Virus record (IMG/VR): IMGVR_UViG_3300031949_000001
Location: 219,305-283,304 of that record
Source: a virus
Lineage: Duplodnaviria > Heunggongvirae > Uroviricota > Caudoviricetes
Strand: one strand, 5' to 3'
Length of the DNA: 64,000 nucleotides
Of this stretch, positions 3,813-49,175 are shown piece by piece (position 1 is the stretch's first letter; each line of letters opens with the position of its first letter). The translations under genes were made by a program, and so were the position numbers. The notes beneath the pieces were generated by a model. It worked only from the letters and a program-made list of their open reading frames with translations, was not told the DNA's origin and did not search any database.

Positions 3813-3822
3813 TTTTAATCTC

Positions 3823-5151
3823 CTATTGTGTGGGTATCATATCTATTAAATCATTTACATTGCTTTTTGGATCTGGTTTAGGGTTTTTGTTCTTTGGACC
3901 ATTTCCACCGAAAAGTGACGGTTTTCCTATATCTCTAATTCTCAGAGAATTTCTATCCCATGCCAAGTCGATTCTTGTTACATCAACCGTAACGTTCCTA
4001 TTTGCCAAAAACTGGAATGAAATCAAGCCTTCAGCCTTCATTCTCTCCGATTGATAAATCGCAACAAGATCATCAGTCGTATTTATCTTACTAACACCAC
4101 CTGCAATCATACCACCATTATATGATGTGACAGATTCGCCTAATGCGGTACGATTCAACTGGGAGGCGGAAGTTCCGTACATATCATAGTCCACTAAAAT
4201 CTGACGCAATTGCTCACTAACAAGTTTATCCTTTGTGAACGCATCCCCGATGGAAACATCTCTTTCATTTGGATAAAACAAATCTAAGTAATCGAATGCT
4301 ATAGCCTGAGGGATGTAACCACGCTTCAATTCAAACTCTTTTAGATAGCTCCTAATATGGACTGGACGTGTACCAGCAGGCATGTGTTCAACAACTAGGT
4401 CTACGGTATCCTGTAATCGTTCAATAGCGTGTATGACCTCTGTTTCTCTATCTAAAAGTTCTCTGGATGGTATTCCGGAAACCATTTGAGCGAAGCGTTT
4501 CCATATGACTGGTACCGAAAGTTCCAAGGAAATATAGAGAGCAGGTAAGTCTTGTTCGGCGAGGTTCAAGCACAAGTTTTGCATTGTGATTGATTTTCCG
4601 CCTTTTGGTGGAGCGGTCCAAAGTAACATTTCTTGTCGCGAAATGCCACCTTCCATGATATAATCAAATTCCTTCCAACCAGTTGACTGCTTTGGGTGAG
4701 TACGGAGACGTTCCATCATCCCGCGTGGGTCTTCTGTTAACCCCATACCAATTTGTTTATGTAATGATATGGTGCTGGCTTCGGTAACTAAATTTTTGAC
4801 CTTTGCGGCAACAACATCCGGATTCGTATCTTCCTGATTTATTAACGCAGCAGAAGACAATACTGCCGAGATCAATGCTTGTTCTTTACAAAATTTCTCT
4901 ACTTCGATTGCACAGTATTCGATTTGGTCTCTTGTTATCTGGACTAACTCTATTTCAATATCAGACTCCGCGAGAACTTGTGCTGGACTTGGAACTGCGT
5001 TGTACTTATCAGCATAGCCTTTGATAAATGATACTGCATTTTTCAAAGCTGGAGTAAAATATTCTGCCTTAATGATTGGGGCGCAGAGCGCAAAGAGTGG
5101 TGCCGATGAAATCAAATAGCTGACGATCAGCTTTTGTTTGGCGTCGTTCAT
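3823..5151 (-). CDS. replicative DNA helicase, DnaB/gp41 family
   Basis: C-terminal RecA-like domain with Walker A motif PPKGGKS and the segment LYISLELS. Length 442 aa. The stop codon is TAG. Confidence 0.8.
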   Translation of the reverse strand: MNDAKQKLIVSYLISSAPLFALCAPIIKAEYFTPALKNAVSFIKGYADKYNAVPSPAQVLAESDIEIELVQITRDQIEYCAIEVEKFCKEQALISAVLSSAALINQEDTNPDVVAAKVKNLVTEASTISLHKQIGMGLTEDPRGMMERLRTHPKQSTGWKEFDYIMEGGISRQEMLLWTAPPKGGKSITMQNLCLNLAEQDLPALYISLELSVPVIWKRFAQMVSGIPSRELLDRETEVIHAIERLQDTVDLVVEHMPAGTRPVHIRSYLKEFELKRGYIPQAIAFDYLDLFYPNERDVSIGDAFTKDKLVSEQLRQILVDYDMYGTSASQLNRTALGESVTSYNGGMIAGGVSKINTTDDLVAIYQSERMKAEGLISFQFLANRNVTVDVTRIDLAWDRNSLRIRDIGKPSLFGGNGPKNKNPKPDPKSNVNDLIDMIPTQ

Positions 5152-8032: not shown

Positions 8033-9016
8033 TTAGAACTCCTTGTTCATCATGGAAAAGTACCATTCGCGGCACTTGTTATTTACTTCCTTAACAACCT
8101 CTTTCCACTCGAAGCCATTTTCGGTGATAGTGTCCGACTCTTCCTTAAGAATGTCGCCAGCCACCCACTTCATAAAAACTCCGAAATTCTGAGCAGTTTG
8201 TTCTAACTTCTGCTGGTTTAGCAAAACGTCAAGACCTTGCTTAAGCCTACCTTCCGGCAAAATAAGCTCAACACAAGCCCGGATACTTTCAACTCGTTCA
8301 ACATCAACTGGAGCAACCGTCTTTACCTTAGACTTAGAATGTAAAGTCCCTTTCGTTTTGAACCAGAGATCGCTATCTGTAGGTCTTTCGAGACATGTCC
8401 AAACGATACCTTCACCTAAACCAGAGATACCAAATGACTTAGCCCAAGGGCACTCTTCTTCAACCTGAGCGGTGTATTTCACGAATTCCGCAACAGACTG
8501 CTCCGGAGTCTTGAAGTTAACCTCAACTACAAACGGGTTTATACGATGAATGGTATAAACACCATTAACCTCAAGCCTAGAAGTGTCAAGCTTATTCATC
8601 TGAGAAACGTATTCACCATTGCGCTTCGCAGCAAAAATTACCCACTGCCTTCTTGGAAGCTGACTGATAGCAACTGTATCCTGAATACCTGGACCACACC
8701 ATTCTCCATAGATGGTGATATCATCATCCTTTTCAGTACCGATTTGATCAAAAAGATGATTCAAGTCGTCTTGATTAAGCGTCGCAATGAACTTGGCGAA
8801 GTTGTAGTTATCAGCGGTTACGTCGAGAATTTGTTCACGCGACTGCGGCTGGAATTTGCCATGGAAACGGCGAACGCCAGCGTTGGTTCCGTGCAGCTTG
8901 ACGGTGCCGATGAATGTAAGAGTTGGAATCAAGTGCGGAGAGCTAATTCTGTTGAAATGCTCTCGGACGTTCTTGACAACGTGTCTGAATTGTTCGATAG
9001 ATGTAAACTTTTCCAT
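8033..9016 (-). CDS. RNA ligase 2 (Rnl2-like nucleotidyltransferase)
   Basis: Motif I KLHGTN (T4 Rnl2 has KIHGTN), motif IV EGIVW, motif V FKTKG; 327 aa. Confidence 0.7.
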   Translation of the reverse strand: MEKFTSIEQFRHVVKNVREHFNRISSPHLIPTLTFIGTVKLHGTNAGVRRFHGKFQPQSREQILDVTADNYNFAKFIATLNQDDLNHLFDQIGTEKDDDITIYGEWCGPGIQDTVAISQLPRRQWVIFAAKRNGEYVSQMNKLDTSRLEVNGVYTIHRINPFVVEVNFKTPEQSVAEFVKYTAQVEEECPWAKSFGISGLGEGIVWTCLERPTDSDLWFKTKGTLHSKSKVKTVAPVDVERVESIRACVELILPEGRLKQGLDVLLNQQKLEQTAQNFGVFMKWVAGDILKEESDTITENGFEWKEVVKEVNNKCREWYFSMMNKEF

Positions 9017-12822: not shown

Positions 12823-13119
12823 TTAGTCGCGCCAATTCAACTTCTGATTAAGAATTGATATTTCTTCTGTCAGTTTTTTATTTTCAACTTTCAATACGCT
12901 CATAGGATGTTCTGGACATTCTTCGATGTGCGTTTTAAGTATGTCAGCCATAGAAACTGGAGTGTTGTTTACTGGTCCATAACGATGCCCACAATAAACA
13001 CAGTTGACATACATTCCGCTTTGTAAGTCATCAATCCATTCTTCATAACGCTTTATTATGTTAGTAAGGCGGCGATTTTCTGTCTCTAGTGATTCAATAC
13101 GTAATTCTATTTTTTCCAT
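12823..13119 (-). CDS. hypothetical zinc-finger protein
   Basis: CVYCGH...C..H motif with a coiled-coil N-terminus. Confidence 0.4.
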   Translation of the reverse strand: MEKIELRIESLETENRRLTNIIKRYEEWIDDLQSGMYVNCVYCGHRYGPVNNTPVSMADILKTHIEECPEHPMSVLKVENKKLTEEISILNQKLNWRD

Positions 13120-13817
13120 TATACTACCTCCTTGTAATTCAGCTTATTCTTTTCAATCAACTGAGCTAACGAAATCGGCGTGAAACCAACCTGTTCAACG
13201 CTTACGTTAACGTGGTGTGGATGACCGGTATTTGAGTCGTGTGTGTGCCCATGGATGCCATAGTAGCCATCAGGCACGTGTGCATTCAATGGATAGTGTG
13301 TGAATATAAGATTACCAAGCTGATAAGCTGAATGAATCTCATCGAAATACAGCGTTCTCAATTTACCACCCTTATCAAGATCGTGGTTACCAAAAACCAA
13401 AATCTTATATCCTGATAGGCTTGCCAACATAGAGTTTGTAACGTGTGTACCGCCACGTTCAAATGTAACATCACCTACCCAAATGCTTACATCATCTGGT
13501 CCAACCGTCTTACGATAGTTTTCCAATAAGGCATGATTCATATCATCTGTATTGGAGTATGGGCGACCGGTATAACGAATAATGTTGTTGTGGAAGAAAT
13601 GGAGGTCACTCCAAATCCAAATTCTATTTGGATCGAATCCGATGAGGTCTTTAAAAGAACCTTCTATCTTAGCCGATGGAATAAAGTCTCTCCATGGGCT
13701 TGGGTCACGGACTTGGGGACGCGATGCGCGCTCTTCGCCCATCCTATCCGCCCGCATCCTTTCGTCTGGTGCTCTTAGGTTTCGAACATATAGTTCAATT
13801 AGTTTTTCGTACTTCAT
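13119..13817 (-). CDS. calcineurin-like metallophosphoesterase
   Basis: Motifs WSDLHF, GD, GNHD and GHTHD. The start was moved to the MKYEKL methionine, which has an AAGGA ribosome-binding site. Confidence 0.65.
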   Translation of the reverse strand: MKYEKLIELYVRNLRAPDERMRADRMGEERASRPQVRDPSPWRDFIPSAKIEGSFKDLIGFDPNRIWIWSDLHFFHNNIIRYTGRPYSNTDDMNHALLENYRKTVGPDDVSIWVGDVTFERGGTHVTNSMLASLSGYKILVFGNHDLDKGGKLRTLYFDEIHSAYQLGNLIFTHYPLNAHVPDGYYGIHGHTHDSNTGHPHHVNVSVEQVGFTPISLAQLIEKNKLNYKEVV

Positions 13818-14838
13818 TTTTGTTACTTTTTCCTTTATGTGTTGATTTTTTACAAAGGACGAATATTTGTGCTTTAGCTTCATTCCCCGTAAAAGTTTTT
13901 TCAATTATAGAATTCAAGACGTATAGCTTACCATATTTTACTACAGCTTCGCAAATGTCCTTACATTCACCTATTTCGGGCATGCCTATTGCCCATCCTT
14001 GTTCTATTCCACATAACGCCAATAAATGACCATCACCCCTCCTATCAGGAAGGATTATCTTTTTGCGAGAAGTTCTATTTAGTATTTTTATTTGTTCTGT
14101 CGAGAGTTCATTTCCCAAGACAGCAACACCTCCCAGGTGAAACGCGTCGAAGAAACCTTCTACAATGTACAGCGGATCATCTGTTTTGCGATGTATTTCA
14201 TCCATTCCGTACATCACATTTCCCTTCGGGATAGCAAGACTGAGATATTTTAAACGAGTTGAATTGTCGAGCAAGTCTCGCCCTTGGTAGAATATTAGTT
14301 TTTCTTGATGATAAAAGGGGATGATTAAACGAGCAACCCATTGCTTACTTTCCTTAGTGCCATCGTTCTTACCCGTAAAGAATGGATAGTCTCCCAAAGA
14401 CATAGATCTTTGAGTCTGAAGATGCTCTTCCGCCATCACGGCAATGGAGTTATTGGGATCGACTTTGAGGCGTTCGAAATAGCTCGGAAACTTAACTTCT
14501 TTAGGATAAAAGACCGATTCTTTCTTGACTTCTGGACTCTTAAGACCCTTTCTAATCGCCAAATCTTTGAGAATGATTCCATTCAATTCTTCTTCGGGAA
14601 TACCAAAAGCTGCGAGAACATCTCGCATCGCATCAGACATTTTGAAATTAGGATCATAGGTTGCCTTGGCTGGACAGTTGAAGCAATGATAGCCGACAGT
14701 ATCGCCTTCAAATTTGAAGCCACCACGCTTTTTATTGGCATGATCGTTACAGGCAAGACATCGAACGGGATGCCAACCCGAGGGCGTAGCATCGCCTAGT
14801 GAAATGTAGGTTCTAATTATTTCTTGTAGATCGTTCAT
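13795..14838 (-). CDS. DNA primase (T4 gp61/DnaG-like: zinc ribbon + TOPRIM)
   Basis: N-terminal zinc ribbon CLACNDH...CFNC and a TOPRIM domain (IVEGFFD, PDRRGDG). Confidence 0.7.
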   Translation of the reverse strand: MNDLQEIIRTYISLGDATPSGWHPVRCLACNDHANKKRGGFKFEGDTVGYHCFNCPAKATYDPNFKMSDAMRDVLAAFGIPEEELNGIILKDLAIRKGLKSPEVKKESVFYPKEVKFPSYFERLKVDPNNSIAVMAEEHLQTQRSMSLGDYPFFTGKNDGTKESKQWVARLIIPFYHQEKLIFYQGRDLLDNSTRLKYLSLAIPKGNVMYGMDEIHRKTDDPLYIVEGFFDAFHLGGVAVLGNELSTEQIKILNRTSRKKIILPDRRGDGHLLALCGIEQGWAIGMPEIGECKDICEAVVKYGKLYVLNSIIEKTFTGNEAKAQIFVLCKKSTHKGKSNKNEVRKTN

Positions 14839-24349: not shown

Positions 24350-24376
24350 ATGGGGTGTAAAACACCCCATTTTTTA
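24350..24376. terminator. bidirectional rho-independent terminator
   Basis: ATGGGGTGT-aaa-ACACCCCAT hairpin flanked by A6 on the 5' side and T6 on the 3' side. Confidence 0.6.
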
Positions 24377-25237
24377 CTCTGCGGTCTTTTCGGTTGCAAT
24401 AATCCATGACTTGACGAACTCACTTCGAACAATATCATCTGTCGTGAATTTAACTGAAGCAAATTCGGGCATTGTTTCTATTGTTCTAAGAAATCGTTTC
24501 ATACCAGACTTGTCGTTGGACTTTTTATCTAAGTCTGTTTGAACGATATCACCGGTAAAGATGACCTTTGAATTGGTTCCGACTCTTGTCATGACGGAAT
24601 TAATTTCATGCCATGTCATGTTTTGACCTTCATCGATAACGATGATAGTGTTATCCCAAGTCAAACCACGAATGTAGGAAGTTGTCGTAAATCGGACCAA
24701 GCCGGTCTCCTTCATGTCATCATATGTCGATGCACGACCAAATAATTCTGACATGATATCGATGTATGGAAGTTCATAGAAGCGTGTTTTGTCTTCAAGA
24801 GATCCTGGCATGAAACCCAATTCGCGGGTTGCTACAGCGGAACGAACGATTCTTAAATGATAATACGATGTATTGCCATCTAGAATGTCACACATTGCAA
24901 GGTATAGGGCTAGAAATGTTTTACCGGTTCCGGCAGAACCTGAAGCACAAATTTGGTATCCCAAATTATGCAGTTTGAACATTTCTTTTTGATTATCTGT
25001 TAAGGGTTGTATTGCTCTGATATCATGTTTGGTCCATTTCTTTCTTTGTGGACCATCTAACATTGCTGCCTGATTATTGGATATGAGATGTAAATCTGCC
25101 TGTTTTTGCTTAGTTTTGTGACCTGCGTTCTTAGACATATCTTTGTCCTTTTTAATAGGTTGGTGTGTTACAAACTCGCTTACTGCCGAACTTATTTTAC
25201 ATAGCCACCCCCTTTCATTCAGTTTAAAGTTGATCAA
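24374..25237 (-). CDS. phoH: PhoH-like ATPase
   Basis: Walker A motif GSAGTGKTF and Walker B motif IVIDEGQN. Confidence 0.85.
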   Translation of the reverse strand: MINFKLNERGWLCKISSAVSEFVTHQPIKKDKDMSKNAGHKTKQKQADLHLISNNQAAMLDGPQRKKWTKHDIRAIQPLTDNQKEMFKLHNLGYQICASGSAGTGKTFLALYLAMCDILDGNTSYYHLRIVRSAVATRELGFMPGSLEDKTRFYELPYIDIMSELFGRASTYDDMKETGLVRFTTTSYIRGLTWDNTIIVIDEGQNMTWHEINSVMTRVGTNSKVIFTGDIVQTDLDKKSNDKSGMKRFLRTIETMPEFASVKFTTDDIVRSEFVKSWIIATEKTAE

Positions 25238-26779: not shown

Positions 26780-27151
26780 TTACTCCTTATCAAGCGGGTC
26801 GTCTTTGTTTACTTCGATCCATACACCATCCATCTTAACCTCAACTTTCACCTTACGCAACTCCTTTCTAACATTTTCATCTATTACAGAAAGTAGCCCG
26901 GTTCTACGTGCAGCTTCGTGCTTAACCCATGCTTGAAACTCCTTTGTGTTAAACATCTTTTCAAAAGCATCGATTTTGTTATCATGCTGTGATCTGGACG
27001 CCTCACTATAGCCGTGAGCACCAGATGGGCGGTGTATACAGTGAACCGCACTGGAGGTCTTATTTTTTTTCTGCCCACCCGAGCCGGTGCCCTTGGTATA
27101 CGACCATTCACAGTCTTTCGCCGTTACCCTAAAAAGTAACTCTTTTCCCAT
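26780..27151 (-). CDS. ArfB/ICT1-like peptidyl-tRNA hydrolase (class I release factor GGQ domain)
   Basis: GSGGQKKNKTSSAVHCIH versus E. coli ArfB GAGGQHVNKTSTAIHLRF; basic C-terminal tail; 123 aa. Confidence 0.75.
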   Translation of the reverse strand: MGKELLFRVTAKDCEWSYTKGTGSGGQKKNKTSSAVHCIHRPSGAHGYSEASRSQHDNKIDAFEKMFNTKEFQAWVKHEAARRTGLLSVIDENVRKELRKVKVEVKMDGVWIEVNKDDPLDKE

Positions 27152-27436: not shown

Positions 27437-27802
27437 TTATAGTGTTTCCAAAGTCTTTCGTTCCGCTACCAAGTCTCGGTTGAGTGCTTTTTCAGTACTA
27501 AACTTTTCTGGATATCTTGTTTGTAATTTTTTGATGTTTGTAGCCATAATACTTTCGTAATCTCCATCAACTGCCTTAATAATCAGTGATATGTACCATA
27601 ACAAGTCACCGCATTCTTCTTTTATGTTTACTAAGTCGATTGATTTACCATAAAATAATGCTTTCTTGAGAGCATCGAGTAATTCACCAGCCTCGGTCGA
27701 TACTCCGATAATACCATGTAGCAATCTACGATCAACTTTTTCCATGAAAAAGTTTGAACTTTCTGTCTTTAAAACATTTTCGATATATTCTTTATTATTC
27801 AT
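27437..27802 (-). CDS. MazG-like NTP pyrophosphatase (second copy)
   Basis: EAGELLD and EECGDLLWY motifs; 121 aa. Confidence 0.6.
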   Translation of the reverse strand: MNNKEYIENVLKTESSNFFMEKVDRRLLHGIIGVSTEAGELLDALKKALFYGKSIDLVNIKEECGDLLWYISLIIKAVDGDYESIMATNIKKLQTRYPEKFSTEKALNRDLVAERKTLETL

Positions 27803-28186: not shown

Positions 28187-28579
28187 TTAGACTTCTTTTA
28201 ATAACTCCCTCAATATGAGTAGCTCAGATTCTGTTATGGTGCGCTTATATTGCAGCCAGTTTGTCAACAGATGTTCAATGTTTGCAGCGCCAATTTGATT
28301 GGCTGAGTGAACCTGAAACCTGAAGTTTGGTTGTAAGAAATCACGATGTTTTTCAACAGCATCTAAATCTTTTTCGACTAACCATTTGGCGAAAGCATAG
28401 CCATCATTACCTTCTTCGTGTCCAAGGTCATGATCAAAACTAACAACGGTTGGTGCTCCCCGACCAGTAACTAATTCTTTAGCTTGAGATACTGAACGGG
28501 CGATTACCCATTTCGTGATACCTAGCGGATTTGCGGCTTCGGAAGGGGAGCGTAGATCGTCTAGAAAAAGATTCCACAT
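28187..28579 (-). CDS. hypothetical protein with CheY-like receiver-type motifs
   Basis: LFLDDLR ... VSFDHDLG ... YAFAKW resemble the DD/D/K positions of REC domains. Confidence 0.35.
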   Translation of the reverse strand: MWNLFLDDLRSPSEAANPLGITKWVIARSVSQAKELVTGRGAPTVVSFDHDLGHEEGNDGYAFAKWLVEKDLDAVEKHRDFLQPNFRFQVHSANQIGAANIEHLLTNWLQYKRTITESELLILRELLKEV

Positions 28580-28667
28580 AAACTACTCCTATGATTAGAT
28601 CGTAGCCGTATTTACCGGAAATGTCAATAGAAAAGCCACCCGAAAGCGGCTTTTCTAAGTTAGATTT

Positions 28668-30140
28668 TTAGAAGTCGTACTGAAGACGCATCATAATTAC
28701 CTTCTCACCATTTGTCTTAGCAACAGATGGTGTTGAAGCAGCTTGAGAGACAATCACTGGACTGTTGAATTTAGTATCAACATAGTTCAACATTAGACGA
28801 GTTCTTGGATTAAGAATCCAATTCACACCATATGTGATAGATGTTGCGCTAGTTGTAAATGCTGCACTCGCTGTTGAAGTAGGAATGACACCTGTACCAG
28901 CCTTACCGGTTGCGAAATCATCAGCATTAAACTGACTGAAACGAATACCAACTTCCCACCCACCACCACTAAGAGTCTTATAGTCAAAATCTTTCTTTGG
29001 TTTCATACGGTCGAACTTGCCATCCTTATACCGATCAGCGTAATGTTCACCCGTGATCATCCACATTATATCCACATAATTACTGGTGATTTTTTTGTCG
29101 TAGCCGACATTGGCTACCGAAACTCCACTGTAGTTGACTGACATCATTTCAGTTTGTATCTTAAAATTCTTATAAGCTAATACACCTTCAAGACCGGTAC
29201 GAGTCCGGGACAAATCAGCTCCAGTAAATGTACTCGGTGTAAAAAATATGATACCACGAGATTCAGTTCTACCGCTTACTGCCGCTCCGATTGGCTCGGT
29301 GCCTGTTGTGTAGCCAATTCCAAGATGAACAACAGTGTCTTTCCAAGAAAACAATTCAGCAAAGTTGATTGTGCCGCGTGCGATAATATCATTGCTATCG
29401 ACCGTATTTACTGTTTCGTTTGCGTTCTTACCTTGACCAGTAGACAATGCCAATGCATATGTGGTACCAGCCAATGGTGTACCATGAACCATGATACCGC
29501 GTTCCTTATTAGGAACCATCGAATTACCCATCGAACGTTCCATGAAATCGGTGAACAAGTCGCTTGTCATCTCTTCCAAACTGAAAGGCATCTTGAATTG
29601 ACCAACGCGGAACTGTGCTTCTTTCCAATAGTTGACGTTTAAATATGCTTCGTCAAGTACGCTTGCTCCACTACCACCACCGAAATCACCAATTATAAGC
29701 CATTCATACGAACCGTAGAATTTACCCTTCAAACCCAAAAAGCCTCTACGAATGTCGAATGTATTTGCTGTTGCGCCTGCCGCATCACCACCAAACTTAC
29801 GATAATCAAGTTGTAGACGAACTGTTGGGGCGAATGAGAAATTTTTGTCAGTACTTTCAAAAACCAAAGAACCGTCTTTAAGTTTACCTTTTACATCTGT
29901 TTTTGCGTTTTCCTTTGCTTTCTCTTTAGCTTCTATGTCCTGGGCTACCCTTAGAGCGGTTGCTCTACGATCAGCCCGTTGTGTTAATGTTTCCTCTTCA
30001 TGCTGGTTCGAAAGCGTCTTATACTCATCATCAGTTAATTTACCACTGTCATGAAGTGTATCGAGAAGATTAGTCGTTGTATCTGCATACACGAATCCTA
30101 TGCACATACTCAATGCGATTGTCATAATTAATTGTTTCAT
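28668..30140 (-). CDS. phosphate-selective porin O/P-like outer-membrane beta-barrel
   Basis: Signal peptide, alternating amphipathic strands and a C-terminal ...LQYDF with terminal Phe. Shares an operon with pstS. Confidence 0.6.
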   Translation of the reverse strand: MKQLIMTIALSMCIGFVYADTTTNLLDTLHDSGKLTDDEYKTLSNQHEEETLTQRADRRATALRVAQDIEAKEKAKENAKTDVKGKLKDGSLVFESTDKNFSFAPTVRLQLDYRKFGGDAAGATANTFDIRRGFLGLKGKFYGSYEWLIIGDFGGGSGASVLDEAYLNVNYWKEAQFRVGQFKMPFSLEEMTSDLFTDFMERSMGNSMVPNKERGIMVHGTPLAGTTYALALSTGQGKNANETVNTVDSNDIIARGTINFAELFSWKDTVVHLGIGYTTGTEPIGAAVSGRTESRGIIFFTPSTFTGADLSRTRTGLEGVLAYKNFKIQTEMMSVNYSGVSVANVGYDKKITSNYVDIMWMITGEHYADRYKDGKFDRMKPKKDFDYKTLSGGGWEVGIRFSQFNADDFATGKAGTGVIPTSTASAAFTTSATSITYGVNWILNPRTRLMLNYVDTKFNSPVIVSQAASTPSVAKTNGEKVIMMRLQYDF

Positions 30141-30142
30141 GG

Positions 30143-31117
30143 TTATTCCTTAGTTTCCATTTTAATTAGTTGCTCGATGGTTAGTCCTACTTTATTCTCT
30201 CCACCGAATTTTGTTCCGAATTTTTTACTTCTAGCGTGTGTTAGATTGTATTCATAAGCATGAACAGGCAAAGGCACATACTTGACTTCTTTAACTAATT
30301 TCGGCGCGTTCTTCATGTAGTACTCTATGAATCGTTGAACTTCCGATCTTTCGAAAGACCTTGCATTAACATAGATAAAGAGAGGTCTGGATAATGGTTG
30401 ATAAGTACCGTTCATAACTGTTTCTACGGAAGGACCGACCGGCTTTGCCCCAGTCTTGGAAATGATTAGAACTGCCCTTAGTTTGTTACGATTTTCATCA
30501 AAATAAGCAAACCCAAAATATCCAAGCGAATTCACATCTTGAGAAACGCCTTGAACTAGAACATTGTCATCTTCGCTCGCAGTAAAGTCACCACGAGAAG
30601 ATTTGGTTTTTCCAACAATAGCTTCGGTAAAATAATCAAATGTTCCAGAATCAGCACCGGGACCATAAAGCTTCAATTGAGTATTTGTCCATGCTGGATT
30701 TATTTGATTCCATTTTGTAATTTTACCCTGCGCCATCGGCTCCCATATTTTCTTTAGTTCTTCGACAGTAATGCTATTAAGCCAAGTATTTTTAGAGCTA
30801 ACAACAACAGTCAGAGCATCAAACGCAACTGGTAGTTCATAATACTGAATGCCGGCTACTTTACAAGCTTCCATTTCGGATTTGAGGATAGGACGAGACG
30901 CGTTAGCAATATCAATTTCGCCTCGACAAAACTTCTTAAACCCGCCGCCTGTACCAGAAATACCAACAGTAACTTTGGTGTGTGTCGATGATTGAAAGTC
31001 TTCTGCTACTGCCTCTGATATAGGAAACACTGTGCTCGATCCGTCTAGTTTAACTAACTGAGCATGTGCGGTTACAGAACAAAACAAAAAAGTAAGGATT
31101 GTTAGAACTGTCTTCAT
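30143..31117 (-). CDS. pstS: phosphate ABC transporter substrate-binding protein
   Basis: Signal peptide plus [17 protein letters not shown] and GISGTGGG motifs; 324 aa. Confidence 0.85.
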
Positions 31118-31198
31118 ATTATTCCTTTGGTTAAGTTATACCAGAATTATTACAGTGGTCTGGTGTATTTACTAACTATCTGAGTATAAAGGAATTTT

Positions 31199-31216
31199 GT
31201 GACAGTAGTATGACAG
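31199..31216 (-). promoter_or_regulatory. Pho box (PhoB binding site) upstream of pstS
   Basis: The minus strand reads CTGTCAT-ACTA-CTGTCAC, two 7-nt direct repeats with a 4-nt spacer, matching the CTGTCAT A(A/T)A(T/A) CTGTCAY consensus. It lies about 85 nt upstream of the start. Confidence 0.6.
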
Positions 31217-31240
31217 TTTTGTTAAATTAATGTTACAACC

Positions 31241-31279
31241 CGAAATAAAAGGGGGTTCATCGGACCAGGATGAACCCCC
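31241..31279 (-). terminator. rho-independent terminator downstream of the SPFH gene
   Basis: 11-bp stem GGGGGTTCATC...GATGAACCCCC followed by TTTTATTTC on the minus strand. Confidence 0.6.
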
Positions 31280-31324
31280 TTTCGAGGAGCAGTCTCACAT
31301 GAAGGAAGAGACTGTTTATTTTGC

Positions 31325-32557
31325 TTACTTCTTTACCTTAGCGGTCGCTTCCTTACCAGCAGTCTGCAAGTCTATGCTAAGCTGCTTAGCTGCATTAGCA
31401 GTCATGATTTCCATAAATGTCTGTGCATTGATTACAGCGGAGCCACCACCATTAGCGCCACCGCCGATCACGACGCCTGGAACCATGTTGCCAGGGAATC
31501 CTTGGAAAGCAGTAGCCCATGCCTTATTAATTTCGATAAGGGCATCAAGTTTAGGTTGCAAAGCACCGTCAGCATTCATTACAAGTTTCTTTCTTTCGGC
31601 ATCACCCTCGCCGCGCAGAATCTGTGCTTTCTTATACTGTTCAGCTTGTTTAGCATCGAGTGTTGCAACTTCAAGTTGCTGTTGAGCCTCTGTAACAACC
31701 TTAGCCTTGATTGTTTCTTGTTCCCACTTAGCCTTGGCAGCGTTTGCCTCACCTTGCTTAACCGCAGTAATAGCTTCCTGTTCAGCACGCAGGGCAGCAG
31801 CCCTCGAAATCTGAACCTGAGTTGTGGCGCCTTGTCTTTCAGCGATCTGTTTTTCAACTATAGCATCGTAATCGATGGCGCGAATTGAAACCGGTTGAAG
31901 CTTGATACCGTATTCATCAAGAATGGAACCTTGCTGCCGTTTTGGCATACCTTTTTCATCGTGTGCGATCTTAACAAGAGTGATTTGTTTCTTTTCTCCA
32001 GTAAGCGGATCGGGCGCGAAAGTAGTTTCGGTTGTGGTAACATAGATACCATTTTGTGCTTGATCATTAATATACTGAACCAATTCAGCGCGACGTTCTG
32101 CTGAGGATTCCGTCGAAGACATTAGTGGACCAGACATATAGATAGCGTTGTCAACCATCTTGGAGATACCCTTAGCAATAATTCCCTCGGAACTACTAAA
32201 ATTCTGTTGAATTGCGATGATACTCTTGCAATCTGAAGGCATTAGCCAGTTGACGGAACCGGACAAGTCTGCGTGTCCACCATCATTAAAACGTATCTTT
32301 TTGGAATTGTCAATGATTTCCTTACCCTTTTCCTTCAAGAAGTCATAAGACTCTTGACGTGGATACTTGGTAACATGTCCCAACCATTGTGGTTGCCAGC
32401 CGGGCTGTGTGAAGCAATTAAGCTTTCCACCAAGACTCTGAATAACCATGACCTTGTCGGATTCCAAATTAACTGCCATATTTGGAAGAATGATAACCGC
32501 AACTATAGCCAATACAACAGCAGCAGCCATACCTAGAATTTTATTTAAAGTCCACAT
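31325..32557 (-). CDS. SPFH/band-7 (stomatin/prohibitin-like) membrane protein
   Basis: N-terminal transmembrane helix, SPFH domain, long Ala/Glu/Lys/Gln coiled coil; 410 aa. Confidence 0.7.
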   Translation of the reverse strand: MWTLNKILGMAAAVVLAIVAVIILPNMAVNLESDKVMVIQSLGGKLNCFTQPGWQPQWLGHVTKYPRQESYDFLKEKGKEIIDNSKKIRFNDGGHADLSGSVNWLMPSDCKSIIAIQQNFSSSEGIIAKGISKMVDNAIYMSGPLMSSTESSAERRAELVQYINDQAQNGIYVTTTETTFAPDPLTGEKKQITLVKIAHDEKGMPKRQQGSILDEYGIKLQPVSIRAIDYDAIVEKQIAERQGATTQVQISRAAALRAEQEAITAVKQGEANAAKAKWEQETIKAKVVTEAQQQLEVATLDAKQAEQYKKAQILRGEGDAERKKLVMNADGALQPKLDALIEINKAWATAFQGFPGNMVPGVVIGGGANGGGSAVINAQTFMEIMTANAAKQLSIDLQTAGKEATAKVKK

Positions 32558-33105: not shown

Positions 33106-33843
33106 TTGATTTCCATTTTTGTGCCTAATAAATACATCAACTATTTGTGGGGTATTTCAATGTATTACATCATATACAAAATCACAAATGTTGTCAATAA
33201 TAAAATATATATCGGAAAACACAAAACCTTAGATTTAAATGATAATTATATGGGTTCTGGTAAGTATCTAAAACGCGCCATTAAGAAATATGGAATAGAA
33301 AACTTCAAAAAAGAAGTATTACATTATTGTAACTCTGATGAAGACATGATAGCAAAAGAACGAGAAATAGTTAACGAAGAATTCTTGAGTAGGACGGATA
33401 TTTATAATCTAAAAATTGGTGGAGAGGGTGGGTTTGATTATATAAACAAGTCTGAAAAGAAATTAGAATATGTTAGAAAAGGCAGAACAGAGGCAAATAA
33501 AAAAGATGCCCATATAAAAGCAGCCCAAAAACGTAAAGAACAGATGGCATTATATGGGTGTCCGTTGGGTAACTATTTAGGAAGTTTTAAAACTGATAAA
33601 GAATTACAGAAACTTGGACATAAATTTGCTAATACACCATCAGCAAAAGATAAAAGGAAGGAAACTTACAAAGAAATTAAGCATCAACAAGGCGAAACTA
33701 ATTCTCAATATGGCACTTGTTGGATTTATAATTTAAAATTAAAACAAACCATGCTAGTTAAAAAAGAAAGTTTGAAAGAATATGAAAATCTCGGATGGAA
33801 TCTTGGACATAAAATGAGATTTCATAAACCAAAAATAACATAA
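33106..33843 (+). CDS. GIY-YIG homing endonuclease
   Basis: YIIYKITN...KIYIGK with canonical spacing, Arg and Glu catalytic residues, and a basic C-terminal DNA-binding region. Confidence 0.75.
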   Translation: MISIFVPNKYINYLWGISMYYIIYKITNVVNNKIYIGKHKTLDLNDNYMGSGKYLKRAIKKYGIENFKKEVLHYCNSDEDMIAKEREIVNEEFLSRTDIYNLKIGGEGGFDYINKSEKKLEYVRKGRTEANKKDAHIKAAQKRKEQMALYGCPLGNYLGSFKTDKELQKLGHKFANTPSAKDKRKETYKEIKHQQGETNSQYGTCWIYNLKLKQTMLVKKESLKEYENLGWNLGHKMRFHKPKIT

Positions 33844-33936
33844 AAACTGGAGCGTCCTGCGAAATTCGAATTCGCTCATTCACGTTGGAAGCGTGACATG
33901 CTACCGTTGAACACCAAGGACGCATTTAAATATTTT

Positions 33937-36197: not shown

Positions 36198-36962
36198 ATG
36201 GAACCAATTAGATACCGGACGATTTGGATATCAGACGTACATTTAGGAACGAAAGGATGTCAAGCAGAGAAACTTCATGAATTCCTTAAGCGCACCGAGA
36301 GCGATACTCTCTTTCTCGTTGGTGACATCATTGATTTTTGGGCATTAAAACGTGGCTCTAAGTGGACTAAAGAGCACAATGGCATCCTTCAAAAAATCCT
36401 CAAAAAGTCACGACACGGAACGAAGGTCATTTACATTCCAGGTAATCATGACGAAGCACTCCGCGAATATTGCGGTAGTAAATTTGGCGACATTGAAATA
36501 CATCACGATTATACGCACACAACAGCAGACGGAAAGACGATCTTTTGTCTTCATGGTGATTACTTTGATATGGTTACACGTTATCACAAATGGCTCGCTA
36601 ATTTGGGAGATGTAGGATACAACCTTCTAATACGATTGAACAACTCTCTCAACTGGCTACGTAAGATTATTGGAAAGGACCATTGGTCGCTTTCGGCTTA
36701 CATCAAGAACAAAGTCAAACAAGCGATAAGCTACGTCAGTGACTTTGAAGAAAGTGTTGCTAAGCACGCTAAAAAATTAAATGTCGATATGGTCTTGTGT
36801 GGACACATCCATTTTGCTACAATGACTGAATATCACGGTGTAAAATATCTCAACACTGGAGATTGGGTTGAAAGTCTAACCGCCATTGTCGAACATAGAG
36901 ACGGGAAACTTGAACTGATAAAATGGAATGAATATGAAAAAAGGATTGCTCGTAATAACTGA
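36198..36962 (+). CDS. LpxH-like metallophosphoesterase (UDP-2,3-diacylglucosamine hydrolase family)
   Basis: Motifs ISDVHLG, GDIIDFW, GNHDE, GHIHF; length and motif order match LpxH. Confidence 0.65.
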   Translation: MEPIRYRTIWISDVHLGTKGCQAEKLHEFLKRTESDTLFLVGDIIDFWALKRGSKWTKEHNGILQKILKKSRHGTKVIYIPGNHDEALREYCGSKFGDIEIHHDYTHTTADGKTIFCLHGDYFDMVTRYHKWLANLGDVGYNLLIRLNNSLNWLRKIIGKDHWSLSAYIKNKVKQAISYVSDFEESVAKHAKKLNVDMVLCGHIHFATMTEYHGVKYLNTGDWVESLTAIVEHRDGKLELIKWNEYEKRIARNN

Positions 36963-43033: not shown

Positions 43034-43402
43034 TTATTTCTTGACGTGTCGAAATACCGTTACTGGAACAACTTCGATGTATCGAGGCTGTGTTTCTGGT
43101 ATAATAACCCGACATTTATAACAAATTCTCCAGCCGTGATAAGCGATACTAAGGTCGAAACTCTCTCGTAACTTACTGAAAAAGCTATATTTTAAAAGGG
43201 TGTACTTAAACGCAGCGGCAAGAACTTCTTCTCTGATAGACATAGCACCTTCACCAGTAATTCGTTCAATCATACGTTCAAAGAAGTGATCCGGGCAAAT
43301 GCCGAACATTACCCGGATCTCTCCATCATGCGTTTCGCGAACCTCTCTATCAAACCTTTGACAAAGAGACTGATACAAACTTTGAAGGTATACTACGCTC
43401 AT
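43034..43402 (-). CDS. hypothetical protein
   Basis: 122-aa ORF. Confidence 0.4.
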   Translation of the reverse strand: MSVVYLQSLYQSLCQRFDREVRETHDGEIRVMFGICPDHFFERMIERITGEGAMSIREEVLAAAFKYTLLKYSFFSKLRESFDLSIAYHGWRICYKCRVIIPETQPRYIEVVPVTVFRHVKK

Positions 43403-44493
43403 TACTTTAATCCCAAGATCACCATCAATCCATCAAGGCTCATCTCTCGCAAATACTTCTTAACAGAATCAACCTTACCAGCCCGCATGCTGTACAGGGC
43501 ACCGGGAGTACGACACTTAGCCGCCTGAACTGCCAAAGCAAAGTCCTTCTGAGTCGAGATATCCTTGATAGTATCATACAAAGCTTCCAATTCGGACACA
43601 AGAACATCATAACGCGTCTGAACCTCAGTGAATTGAGGTTCATATTCCGGAAAATAGGTCAAGAACTCCGAACCTTCCGACGTACGAACGATTTCCGTAA
43701 TTCGTTTGTAACCAAAACCATCCTTCAAGTGATGGATCGCGACATAAGCCGGATTCTTCATCTTGACACGATTGAAGAGACCATTCTCACGGTTGCTTAC
43801 AACGATGTAGCCTTCCTGGGAAAGCGGATCGATTGCAGCAAAAGTGTCAACAATTGCCTCGAATGATGTGAGGTCATAACGCTTAACACCAGTGAATGTA
43901 TCCTCGAAAAATACAGTCGAAGATTCAGATTCTGTTTCACGGTTGTGAACACCAATCAAAGTCAATGACGGTTCTGTGTAGCGAACAACAACACGGTTGA
44001 ACTGGCTTGTCAATTCGAAAGAAAAACACCAATCCTGACCAATGTCATCTAAAGTGTAACCCATTTCCTTAAAAGTCTTCCAAAAAAGCTCTTCAAAGGT
44101 GAATGGAAAGTCACCAACCTGACCACCAGCGTGCGGCGAACCAGAAGTCGCAACGTGCCACTTACCATCATAGTGGTACATAGTCATCAAGCTACCATCG
44201 ACCTTTTCTTCGACAACTGCGTCGTTCCAATCGATGGGCTCGGCGTGTCCTTCTCCATAGTTGAAGAATTTCTTAAAGCGATAGCAAATCAACTTCCAGT
44301 TGTTGAATTCATCCAAGATGATACCACGGCACTCCTGCACGATTTCTTCGGCAAAAGGAGACTCTAACTGATCATACTTCAGTAGGACCAAGTTCATGAA
44401 GTGTGGATGACGCATAGCGTTAATAGCGTACTTCGCTTTGAGGTCATCAAGGGAATTGCCATCACGAAGATACTTCTGTACCAAGAGTGTCAT
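43402..44493 (-). CDS. RNA ligase 1 (RnlA-like)
   Basis: Motif I EEKVDGSL (T4 Rnl1 has KEDG), motif IV EGYIVV, motif V RVKMK; 363 aa versus 374 aa in T4. Confidence 0.65.
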   Translation of the reverse strand: MTLLVQKYLRDGNSLDDLKAKYAINAMRHPHFMNLVLLKYDQLESPFAEEIVQECRGIILDEFNNWKLICYRFKKFFNYGEGHAEPIDWNDAVVEEKVDGSLMTMYHYDGKWHVATSGSPHAGGQVGDFPFTFEELFWKTFKEMGYTLDDIGQDWCFSFELTSQFNRVVVRYTEPSLTLIGVHNRETESESSTVFFEDTFTGVKRYDLTSFEAIVDTFAAIDPLSQEGYIVVSNRENGLFNRVKMKNPAYVAIHHLKDGFGYKRITEIVRTSEGSEFLTYFPEYEPQFTEVQTRYDVLVSELEALYDTIKDISTQKDFALAVQAAKCRTPGALYSMRAGKVDSVKKYLREMSLDGLMVILGLK

Positions 44494-49099: not shown

Positions 49100-49175
49100 T
49101 GGCGCGCAGTGTGGGAATCGGACCCACGACAATCGGTTTTAGAGACCGCTCCTCTGACCACTAAGGTAACTGCGC
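49100..49175 (-). tRNA. tRNA with CUA anticodon (amber suppressor; Trp-like anticodon arm)
   Basis: The minus strand reads GCGCAGT-TA-CCTT-AGTGGTCA-GAGG-A-GCGGT-CTCTAAA-ACCGA-TTGTC-GTGGG-TCCGATT-CCCAC-ACTGCGC-G-CCA. It is 76 nt with 7/7 acceptor pairs, U33, A37, anticodon positions 34-36 = CUA, and discriminator G73. The anticodon arm is nearly identical to E. coli tRNA-Trp (CCGGUCUCCAAAACCGG). Confidence 0.75.

Follow-up and report, generated by a model that had tools for sequence, protein, structure and literature searches.

A coupled pstS and OprO/OprP-family porin pair behind a predicted Pho-box promoter in a jumbo phage

This report concerns two adjacent genes on the minus strand of a stretch of tailed-phage DNA, positions 219,305 to 283,304 of IMG/VR record IMGVR_UViG_3300031949_000001 (hereafter the window: the whole 64,000-nucleotide stretch that was analyzed, in whose own coordinates all positions are given). 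The first gene encodes a predicted periplasmic phosphate-binding protein, PstS, and the second a predicted outer-membrane porin of the OprO/OprP family. Together with a promoter that carries a Pho box, and with a terminator on either side, they appear to form a bicistronic cassette for phosphate acquisition, insulated from its neighbors, in a jumbo phage whose host is most likely a freshwater betaproteobacterium; I put the probability of this reading at about 0.62. It is built on the gene families, the predicted fold and pore residues of the porin, the anatomy of promoter and terminators, the phage setting of the two genes, and the reappearance of the pair in related phages. A preliminary description of this DNA, made from its letters alone, had proposed a phosphate-acquisition operon here, and its claims are taken up where the results bear on them.

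The pstS gene and the porin gene

The pstS gene (30143..31117, minus strand) is an open reading frame (ORF) of 324 amino acids, and a Shine-Dalgarno sequence, AAGGA, can be read at 31123..31127 (minus strand). Its product starts with a signal peptide (...VTAHA|Q) and matches PBP_like_2 in Pfam (1.7e-35), the NCBIfam model TIGR02136 'PstS family' over residues 20–283 (301.6 bits, with a cutoff of 206.6), the 'phosphate binding protein' 4jwo in the PDB (1.9e-81), and the PHROG family phrog_5385, 'phosphate transporter subunit'. It is 63–74% identical to the PstS of many Betaproteobacteria/Burkholderiales. By these matches the first gene is a member of the PstS family, as the preliminary description had it, the Pfam, TIGR02136 and 4jwo matches all agreeing with that call. 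No pstC, pstA or pstB adjoins the pair or is found among the annotated genes of its 21-kb neighborhood.

The second gene (28668..30140, minus strand) is an ORF of 490 amino acids. It follows pstS after 2 nt (TAA-cc-ATG), not the 3 nt first reported, and its ribosome-binding site, AAGGA, can be read inside the 3′ end of pstS. The product had been described as a 490-residue barrel with a signal peptide and a C-terminal Phe, and both the ORF and the terminal motifs agree: read by eye, the N-terminus, MKQLIMTIALSMCIGFVYA|DTT, is a signal peptide of the Sec type and the C-terminus is ...RLQYDF. Between these lie an N-terminal helical extension (approximately residues 21–81) and the β-barrel.

The porin matches the Pfam profile PF07396 (Porin_O_P) at 5.9e-34 (118.4 bits, gathering score 20.9), its residues 106–490 covering profile positions 4–370 of 370. 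This profile search was named beforehand in the preliminary description as the check on its phosphate-selective-porin assignment, which thus passed. No NCBIfam model matched, and the only sequence matches among solved structures are the Pseudomonas aeruginosa porins OprP (2o4v, 5.7e-15) and OprO (4rjw). An AlphaFold2 model obtained with 71 homologues has a mean predicted local distance difference test (pLDDT) of 89.8 and a predicted template-modeling score (pTM) of 0.80. Searched with Foldseek, the model returned OprP 2o4v at 1.9e-26 (TM-score 0.72 on the target) and OprO 4rjw at 1.0e-25. The next matches, OmpM1, Omp38, PorB and OmpF, follow at ∼1e-11, so that the OprP/OprO fold leads the general porins by fifteen orders of magnitude, and the barrel is of the OprO/OprP type proposed for it, as opposed to an unrelated outer-membrane protein. 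On profile, solved-structure sequence match and predicted fold, the protein belongs to the OprO/OprP family.

The pore residues of OprP were placed, by HMMER alignment, onto a 71-sequence alignment of the porin and its homologues. R108, R131, R132, D163 and R202 of the porin (equivalent to R34, R59, R60, D94 and R133 of OprP) are invariant in this alignment, and R295 (OprP R242) is basic in 99% of it. The clade has 21 conserved basic positions, of which the window porin retains 19. Two further phage porins, 63% and 39% identical to this one and described below, also retain the key pore residues. The protein would thus be an OprP/OprO-type anion pore, probably selective for phosphate; sequence does not decide between a preference for orthophosphate and one for pyrophosphate. 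Its best bacterial relatives, at 40–49% identity, are from Methylophilaceae and other Burkholderiales.

Promoter, Pho box and terminators

A Pho box, CTGTCATACTACTGTCAC, lies upstream of pstS at 31199..31216 (minus strand) and matches CTGTCATNNNNCTGTCAY exactly. It is composed of two CTGTCA(T/C) heptamers with the spacer ACTA (CTGTCAT-ACTA-CTGTCAC). The published consensus has two CTGTCAT repeats, separated by a 4-bp A/T-rich linker, and overlaps the −35 region (PMC3511308). All 14 specified positions of this enterobacterial consensus are matched. An exact match is expected 0.01 times by chance in a 64-kb window. The near-perfect PhoB-type repeat of the preliminary description is therefore upheld, at a canonical promoter position; the ∼85 nt given there as its distance from pstS needs correction, as 81 nt separate the 3′ end of the box from the ATG.

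Exactly 10 nt downstream of the box is a −10 hexamer, TATACT (31183..31188, minus strand, read from the sequence), while the −35 position reads ATACTA and agrees with the consensus in only 2 of 6 positions. A promoter scan of 31117..31330 yielded no complete sigma-70 promoter for the minus strand. Elsewhere in the window the phage has near-consensus sigma-70 promoters (at least 11 of 12 positions), eight of them where 2.6 would be expected, mostly on the gene strand. Since good −35 elements are available elsewhere in the phage and none is found at pstS, the pstS promoter looks activator-dependent. I therefore predict that a PhoB dimer binds this box, which would take the place of the −35 element, and infer phosphate-responsive transcription. 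The box is identical across five independent assemblies. No second one occurs in the 64-kb window even with up to two mismatches, so nothing in this stretch points to a broader Pho regulon of the phage.

The box had also been called host-type. This is reasonable, because in two Methylophilaceae genomes the homologues of oprP carry the same type of box, CTGTCATCAAATTGTCAT or TTGTCATCAAACTGTCAT, at the usual distance, 65–70 nt upstream of the ATG; a phytase-like gene neighboring one such homologue has a similar box. A clear Pho box was expected at every bacterial pstS homologue, but a box with two or fewer mismatches within 350 nt was found at only 8 of 80 betaproteobacterial pstS loci, at distances of 65–94 nt (82 nt for the phage box on the same scale). 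This proportion gives the host-type designation moderate support and makes the box a weak host marker.

The pair is bounded by two intrinsic terminators, both on the minus strand. A rule-based terminator scan missed them, as their stems or tails fall outside its rule, and RNA folding was used instead. The upstream terminator (31240..31283) follows the SPFH/Band7 gene, and has a 15-bp G+C-rich stem followed by UUUUAUUU; the region 31325..31240 folds at −34.8 kcal/mol (z = −5.4), with none of 200 shuffled sequences folding as well. After the porin, at 28625..28657, is a 13-bp stem with a GCCGC/GGUGGC core and a U-rich tail (−18.2 kcal/mol, z = −3.95, again 0 of 200 shuffles). The order is therefore terminator, Pho promoter, pstS, porin, terminator, and with terminators on both sides pstS and the porin gene form an insulated unit. 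The next gene downstream, encoding a cREC_REC protein, has a promoter of its own in the promoter scan (TTGACA-17-TACGAT, 28599..28627, minus strand).

The pairing in related phage lineages

In all close relatives the gene order is Band7, pstS, a variable slot, and cREC_REC, with the flanking genes 73–88% identical between lineages at the amino-acid level. In one of these (L002), whose cREC_REC is 73% identical to that of the window, the slot holds a porin 63% identical to the one described here. In the closest sister lineage (L011–L014; Band7 88% identical, PstS 78–80%), it is occupied by an unrelated 500-residue protein. In a third group (L015–L018; PstS 73% identical) only an out-of-frame remnant is left. 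Finally, a more distant 115.9-kb IMG/VR contig (L103), which shares a metallophosphatase–glycosyltransferase pair at 45% and 34% identity, has PstS followed directly by a Porin_O_P protein.

The substitute protein of the sister lineage (L011:10978-12480, GCA_041495885.1, JBGQDN010000008.1) starts with a signal peptide, includes an N-terminal coiled coil and ends in Phe. Neither Pfam, NCBIfam or PHROGs nor the sequences of the PDB gave a match to it; thousands of bacterial homologues exist, some of them tagged 'Porin', DUF3138 (PF11336) or DcaP (PF19577). Nucleotide alignment places the swap junction immediately after the region coding for the signal peptide. In the third group, the slot (L015:10984-11188, likewise in L016–L018) retains the MKSIL... 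start and then, out of frame, the last ∼62 codons of the porin, 63% identical to the C-terminus of the window porin, followed by a terminator. It is a deletion scar of the porin gene, pstS alone having been kept.

On the distant contig (IMGVR_UViG_3300042892_004016, 3874-6290) both partners differ. PstS is of the Escherichia coli type (TIGR00975, 404 bits) and shares just 24% identity with that of the window, while the porin gene, whose product is 39% identical to the window porin, overlaps pstS by 4 nt. The pair lies behind a plain sigma-70 promoter, TTGACT-17-TATAAT, at 3817-3846, and the Pho wiring is thus lineage-specific and not intrinsic to the module. Directly downstream of this porin, at L103:6420-6494, is a 24-residue peptide, which I take to resemble PqqA, the precursor of the cofactor pyrroloquinoline quinone (PQQ), and which would then suggest a methylotrophic or PQQ-using host; no similar ORF is present in the window.

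Among the sister lineages compared, the TATA(C/A)T −10 hexamer and the 5′ leader are conserved. The Pho box remains recognizable in L011 (CTGTCATAATACGGTAAC), with one half-site degraded to CGGTAAC, and in L015 (CTGTCACAAAACTGTAAT), where it is shifted by one 11-bp register from the −10 hexamer. The terminator upstream of pstS has been replaced, a different hairpin being found at the same place in L015. By these comparisons, the Pho wiring has been kept within the sub-family without being universal, and the pairing of porin and pstS is modular and ancestral to the phage family. That it was kept through non-orthologous replacement of either partner argues that the two proteins work together.

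Phage identity and host group

The source of the window is an uncultured freshwater jumbo phage, and samples that contain it include SRR9005073 and JGI 3300021090. The window encodes DnaB, a primase, ribonucleotide reductase, an NAD-dependent ligase, RnlA, PhoH, Thy1 and MazG, and neighbors of the pair match PHROG families. Its 64 kb also hold two tRNAs and a GIY-YIG endonuclease gene, and no gene for a virion structural protein. The contig that carries the pair is present in IMG/VR, and a 100%-identical PstS is found on contigs of up to 378,912 bp. No DNA match to 50,697 deposited phages was obtained, by blastn with the module or by megablast with 25 kb. The same gene order and junctions recur in at least five independent assemblies (JGI, ENA and Logan), which rules out a chimera, and the G+C content is uniform through the region (0.40–0.42).

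The host is probably a freshwater betaproteobacterium, to judge from the taxonomy of the homologues. A cyanophage origin is ruled out by this same taxonomy and by the type of Pho box (PMC10976474). Capture of a ready-made bacterial pstS–oprP operon is ruled out as well: the Methylophilaceae oprP homologues examined (two genomes) stand alone, with no adjoining pstS, and of 80 betaproteobacterial pstS loci only two, both from Nitrosospira, have a Porin_O_P gene within 4 kb, with 26% identity.

Proposed function and alternative explanations

The following sequence of events may be proposed. Phosphate starvation of the infected cell would lead host PhoR to phosphorylate PhoB, a dimer of which, bound to the Pho box in lieu of a −35 element, would bring sigma-70 RNA polymerase to TATACT. 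A single pstS–porin mRNA would then be made, ending at the terminator at ∼28.63 kb, and both products would be exported via Sec. PstS would feed the host PstCAB transporter from the periplasm. The porin would be inserted by the host β-barrel assembly machinery (BAM) through its C-terminal ...YDF, to give an OprP/OprO-like anion channel with a binding core of arginine and aspartate residues. Flux across the outer membrane and periplasmic phosphate capture would both be raised, supplying the large demand set by copying ∼380 kb of DNA. That PstS works with the PstCAB of the host, and that the phage gains in fitness, are inferred.

A number of observations weigh against this proposal. In the pore, OprP K121, a residue of importance for binding phosphate in P. 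aeruginosa, corresponds to E190, and Glu is likewise found in 50 of 69 bacterial homologues; the arginine ladder of OprP (R218, R220, R222 and R226) is alignable only in part, the R218–R226 loop not at all; and at the position of OprP Y62 the two close phage copies have Phe, the OprO residue. In the control region, no Pho box is found at the pstS–porin promoter of L103, which looks constitutive, and the boxes of L011 and L015 show two to three mismatches or a change of register. Attempts to predict Pho boxes in the genomes of phages can also be unreliable (PMC10976474), a warning which concerns a cyanobacterial motif far more degenerate than the box here. Since the porin has been deleted in L015, it is dispensable. 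Lastly, the variants seen between assemblies, five synonymous and five non-synonymous changes in the porin (S157N, L223W, I275V, A308T and V342A) and one synonymous and no non-synonymous change in pstS, are too few differences to provide more than weak evidence of purifying selection on the porin.

Four other explanations deserve consideration. The Pho box could be an undecayed passenger from a bacterial pstS donor, with transcription driven by the phage programme or by read-through, independently of phosphate. Bacterial pstS homologues can indeed have similar boxes at similar distances, the distant pair runs from a consensus sigma-70 promoter without any box, the sister-lineage boxes are degraded or shifted, and some predicted cyanophage boxes failed to bind PhoB (PMC10976474). 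Yet a pair of good half-sites side by side, together with the −10 hexamer and leader, has persisted while flanking proteins diverged to 73–88% identity and the terminator was replaced wholesale, and in the window lineage the match is still 14 of 14; moreover, there is no other −35 element or promoter between the upstream terminator and pstS, and this strong terminator would block read-through. I consider a passenger box unlikely. An equally unlikely alternative, and one compatible with the proposed cassette, is that the channel serves pyrophosphate or polyphosphate, like OprO, or another oxyanion or organic anion, with PstS taking up the orthophosphate released in the periplasm. The OprO-like Phe at the Y62 position, Tyr in 87% of bacterial homologues, implies that the substrate could be pyrophosphate or polyphosphate, and the OprO F62Y/D114Y structure (PDB 4rjx) indicates that these positions have been targeted as determinants of specificity; position 114 is Lys in the porin, as in neither OprP nor OprO. 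The Glu at the K121 position, the non-Pst ATP-binding cassette (ABC) transporters that adjoin bacterial relatives of the porin, and the occasional DcaP or DUF3138 tag on homologues of the L011 protein point in the same direction. Against another substrate stand the bona fide PstS encoded by the partner gene, the invariance of the five core pore residues, and the company of the Methylophilaceae homologues, which are found among Pho-regulon-type genes (phytase-like and PhoX-like) behind Pho boxes.

Somewhat less probable still is that the porin remodels the cell surface. The OprP-type porin of the host itself, abundant when phosphate is limiting, may be the phage receptor, and a divergent phage porin would replace or dilute it, so as to exclude superinfecting phages or to prevent new virions from attaching to debris and to cells already infected; with Pho control, its timing would match that of receptor expression. 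Lambdoid phages encode OmpC-like porins (Lc and NmpC) that alter the surface of the lysogen. The slot after pstS is variable, being OprP-type in the window and L002, unrelated in L011 and empty in L015, a turnover typical of arms-race genes, and the phage porin is only 40–49% identical to bacterial homologues, compared with ∼72% for PstS. However, L103 shows the same close, translationally coupled arrangement with a pstS that is not orthologous, which is hard to account for unless the two act in one pathway, and three phage copies have kept the basic residues and the Asp that line the pore, none of which would be needed for exclusion alone. An assembly artefact or host contamination, with bacterial genes mis-joined to a phage contig, has next to no probability. 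Both genes do have bacterial homologues, and host genes of the auxiliary metabolic gene (AMG) kind are known to give rise to chimeric contigs, a concern raised for oprP itself (bioRxiv 10.64898/2026.06.18.733297); but order and junctions are identical in the independent assemblies, the Band7–pstS–slot–cREC_REC synteny holds across diverged lineages, base composition is even, and the porin is at most 49% identical to any bacterial homologue.

A broader and more tentative interpretation of the phosphate-acquisition cassette, which I hold somewhat less probable than an even chance, is that it represents a modular uptake system spanning outer membrane and periplasm, in which the PstS subfamily, the channel (OprP-type or DcaP/DUF3138-like) and the control (PhoB or sigma-70) are interchangeable. 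If so, phages would actively alter how permeable the host's outer membrane is so as to feed their replication, going beyond the inner-membrane and periplasmic steps served by cyanophage pstS, with regulatory wiring tuned in each lineage to its phosphate regime.

Neighboring genes and other features of the window

Several further genes of the window relate to phosphate: phoH (phrog_170, 5.7e-79), a MazG pyrophosphohydrolase and two calcineurin-like metallophosphoesterases, at 24374..25237, 27437..27802 and 13119..13904 on the minus strand and 36198..36962 on the plus strand. None of these genes has a Pho box within two mismatches.

The cREC_REC gene just downstream of the module (28187..28579, minus strand) belongs to PF20274, 'cyclic-phosphate processing receiver'. 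Its homologues comprise 308 confirmed metagenome matches, on phage contigs of up to 385 kb, and outside the known lineages no pstS or porin was found within 5 kb of any of these. The window also encodes two RNA ligases, one of PF09414 and one RnlA-like (phrog_562), at 8033..9016 and 43402..44493 (both minus strand). Together with cREC_REC, they suggest an RNA-repair set.

A tRNA with anticodon CUA, labeled tRNA-Pyl by ARAGORN, is found at 49100..49175 (minus strand) and would act as an amber suppressor. TAG is the rarest stop codon in the 71 long ORFs of the window (8, with 26 TGA and 37 TAA), and a small release factor 1 (RF-1)/GGQ-domain protein of 123 amino acids, ArfB-like, is encoded at 26780..27151 (minus strand). 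The three features hint at a manipulation of translation termination. A GIY-YIG (SegE-like) homing-endonuclease ORF (33106..33843, plus strand) abuts tRNA-Gly(UCC) (33848..33923, minus strand). In the sister assembly L009 another ORF occupies this site and an extra SegE-like gene is found elsewhere, so such elements are mobile between strains.

Comparison with known systems

Phage-borne pstS, its control by host PhoB, and phage oprP in the amoC jumbo phages are already known. What appears new is the coupled pstS–porin operon, the enterobacterial-type Pho-box promoter in a jumbo phage of non-cyanobacterial host, and the modular evolutionary series. The preliminary description held that a phage phosphate porin is less commonly reported, and the searches agree: tblastn of the porin against the 50,697 phage records returned no match, PHROGs has no family for it, and a catalogue of phage phosphorus-acquisition genes includes no porin (PMC10987575). 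A few viral entries in BFVD are nonetheless named phosphate-selective porin, and a 2026 preprint, discussed below, does mention phage oprP.

The closest parallel for pstS is found in cyanophages. Host PhoBR control of pstS has been described for P-SSM2, as far as this is cited in PMC10976474, and Pho boxes were verified by electrophoretic mobility shift assay in S-PM2d, where some predicted boxes failed (PMC10976474). The pstS/phoA systems of P-SSM2 and S-PM2d resemble the cassette in having a phage-borne phosphate-binding protein and proposed or demonstrated control by a host two-component system through a Pho box; here this control is predicted. The differences are several. The hosts of cyanophages are cyanobacteria, whereas that of the window phage is probably betaproteobacterial. 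The cyanophage box is made of PyTTAAPyPy(T/A) repeats, whereas that of the window is of the 18-bp CTGTCAT-N4-CTGTCAT type. The window PstS is of the TIGR02136 subfamily, in distinction from cyanophage pstS, and its partner is an outer-membrane porin, which has not been reported for those cyanophages (the word 'porin' does not occur in PMC10976474).

For the porin, the reference proteins are OprP and OprO of P. aeruginosa (2o4v and 4rjw), which are Pho-regulated and selective for phosphate and pyrophosphate. They share PF07396 with the phage protein and are its best match in sequence and fold. Also shared are the equivalents of R34, R59, R60, D94, R133 and R242, the C-terminal Phe and an upstream Pho box. 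Identity is nevertheless only ∼24%, and the phage porin has an extra N-terminal helical domain of ∼60 residues, common to betaproteobacterial homologues. Compared with OprP, K121 is replaced by Glu and Y62 by Phe, and the R218–R226 loop is shorter. In contrast to both, it is phage-encoded and translationally coupled to pstS. Lambdoid prophage porins (Lc of PA-2 and NmpC) are phage-encoded outer-membrane β-barrels too, but these are OmpC/OmpF-type general porins of temperate phages, involved in lysogenic conversion or exclusion, and not phosphate channels behind a Pho box. Some bacterial operons (for example L101) link Porin_O_P with an ABC binding protein, and are alike in combining a co-transcribed outer-membrane anion channel with a periplasmic binding protein. 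In the examples seen, the order is porin, substrate-binding protein, permease, ATPase, with a binding protein other than PstS, whereas the phage pair has no adjoining permease or ATPase.

The amoC jumbo phages (bioRxiv 10.64898/2026.06.18.733297) are alike in carrying an OprP-family porin and in being large (155–338 kb) freshwater phages of Betaproteobacteria (Nitrosomonadaceae). The text of that June 2026 preprint makes no mention of pstS, PhoB or a Pho box. The amoC-phage oprP is more than 60% identical to host homologues, and was used for host assignment, whereas the window porin is at most 49% identical to any bacterial protein, and is ancestral to a phage family. Identity of the window phage with this group is disfavored by the far less host-like porin and by the ORFs, as no match to the AmoC family was obtained among the window ORFs scanned.

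These comparisons place the cassette within a familiar theme. Phage pstS is the classic case of virus-boosted nutrient uptake, and serves periplasmic capture only; here the diffusion step across the outer membrane is virus-encoded as well, physically linked with pstS and, it appears, switched by the host starvation sensor. The range of phosphate AMGs is thereby widened to jumbo phages of Betaproteobacteria in fresh water, where phosphorus is usually the limiting nutrient, and a genome of ∼380 kb carries an unusually high phosphorus cost per virion. Because the enterobacterial-type Pho box is well understood, its regulation is directly testable by E. coli or Pseudomonas genetics, without culture of the host. 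The lineage series, in which the porin is retained, swapped or deleted and a different PstS and promoter occur, offers a natural experiment for asking on which components of the cassette selection acts.

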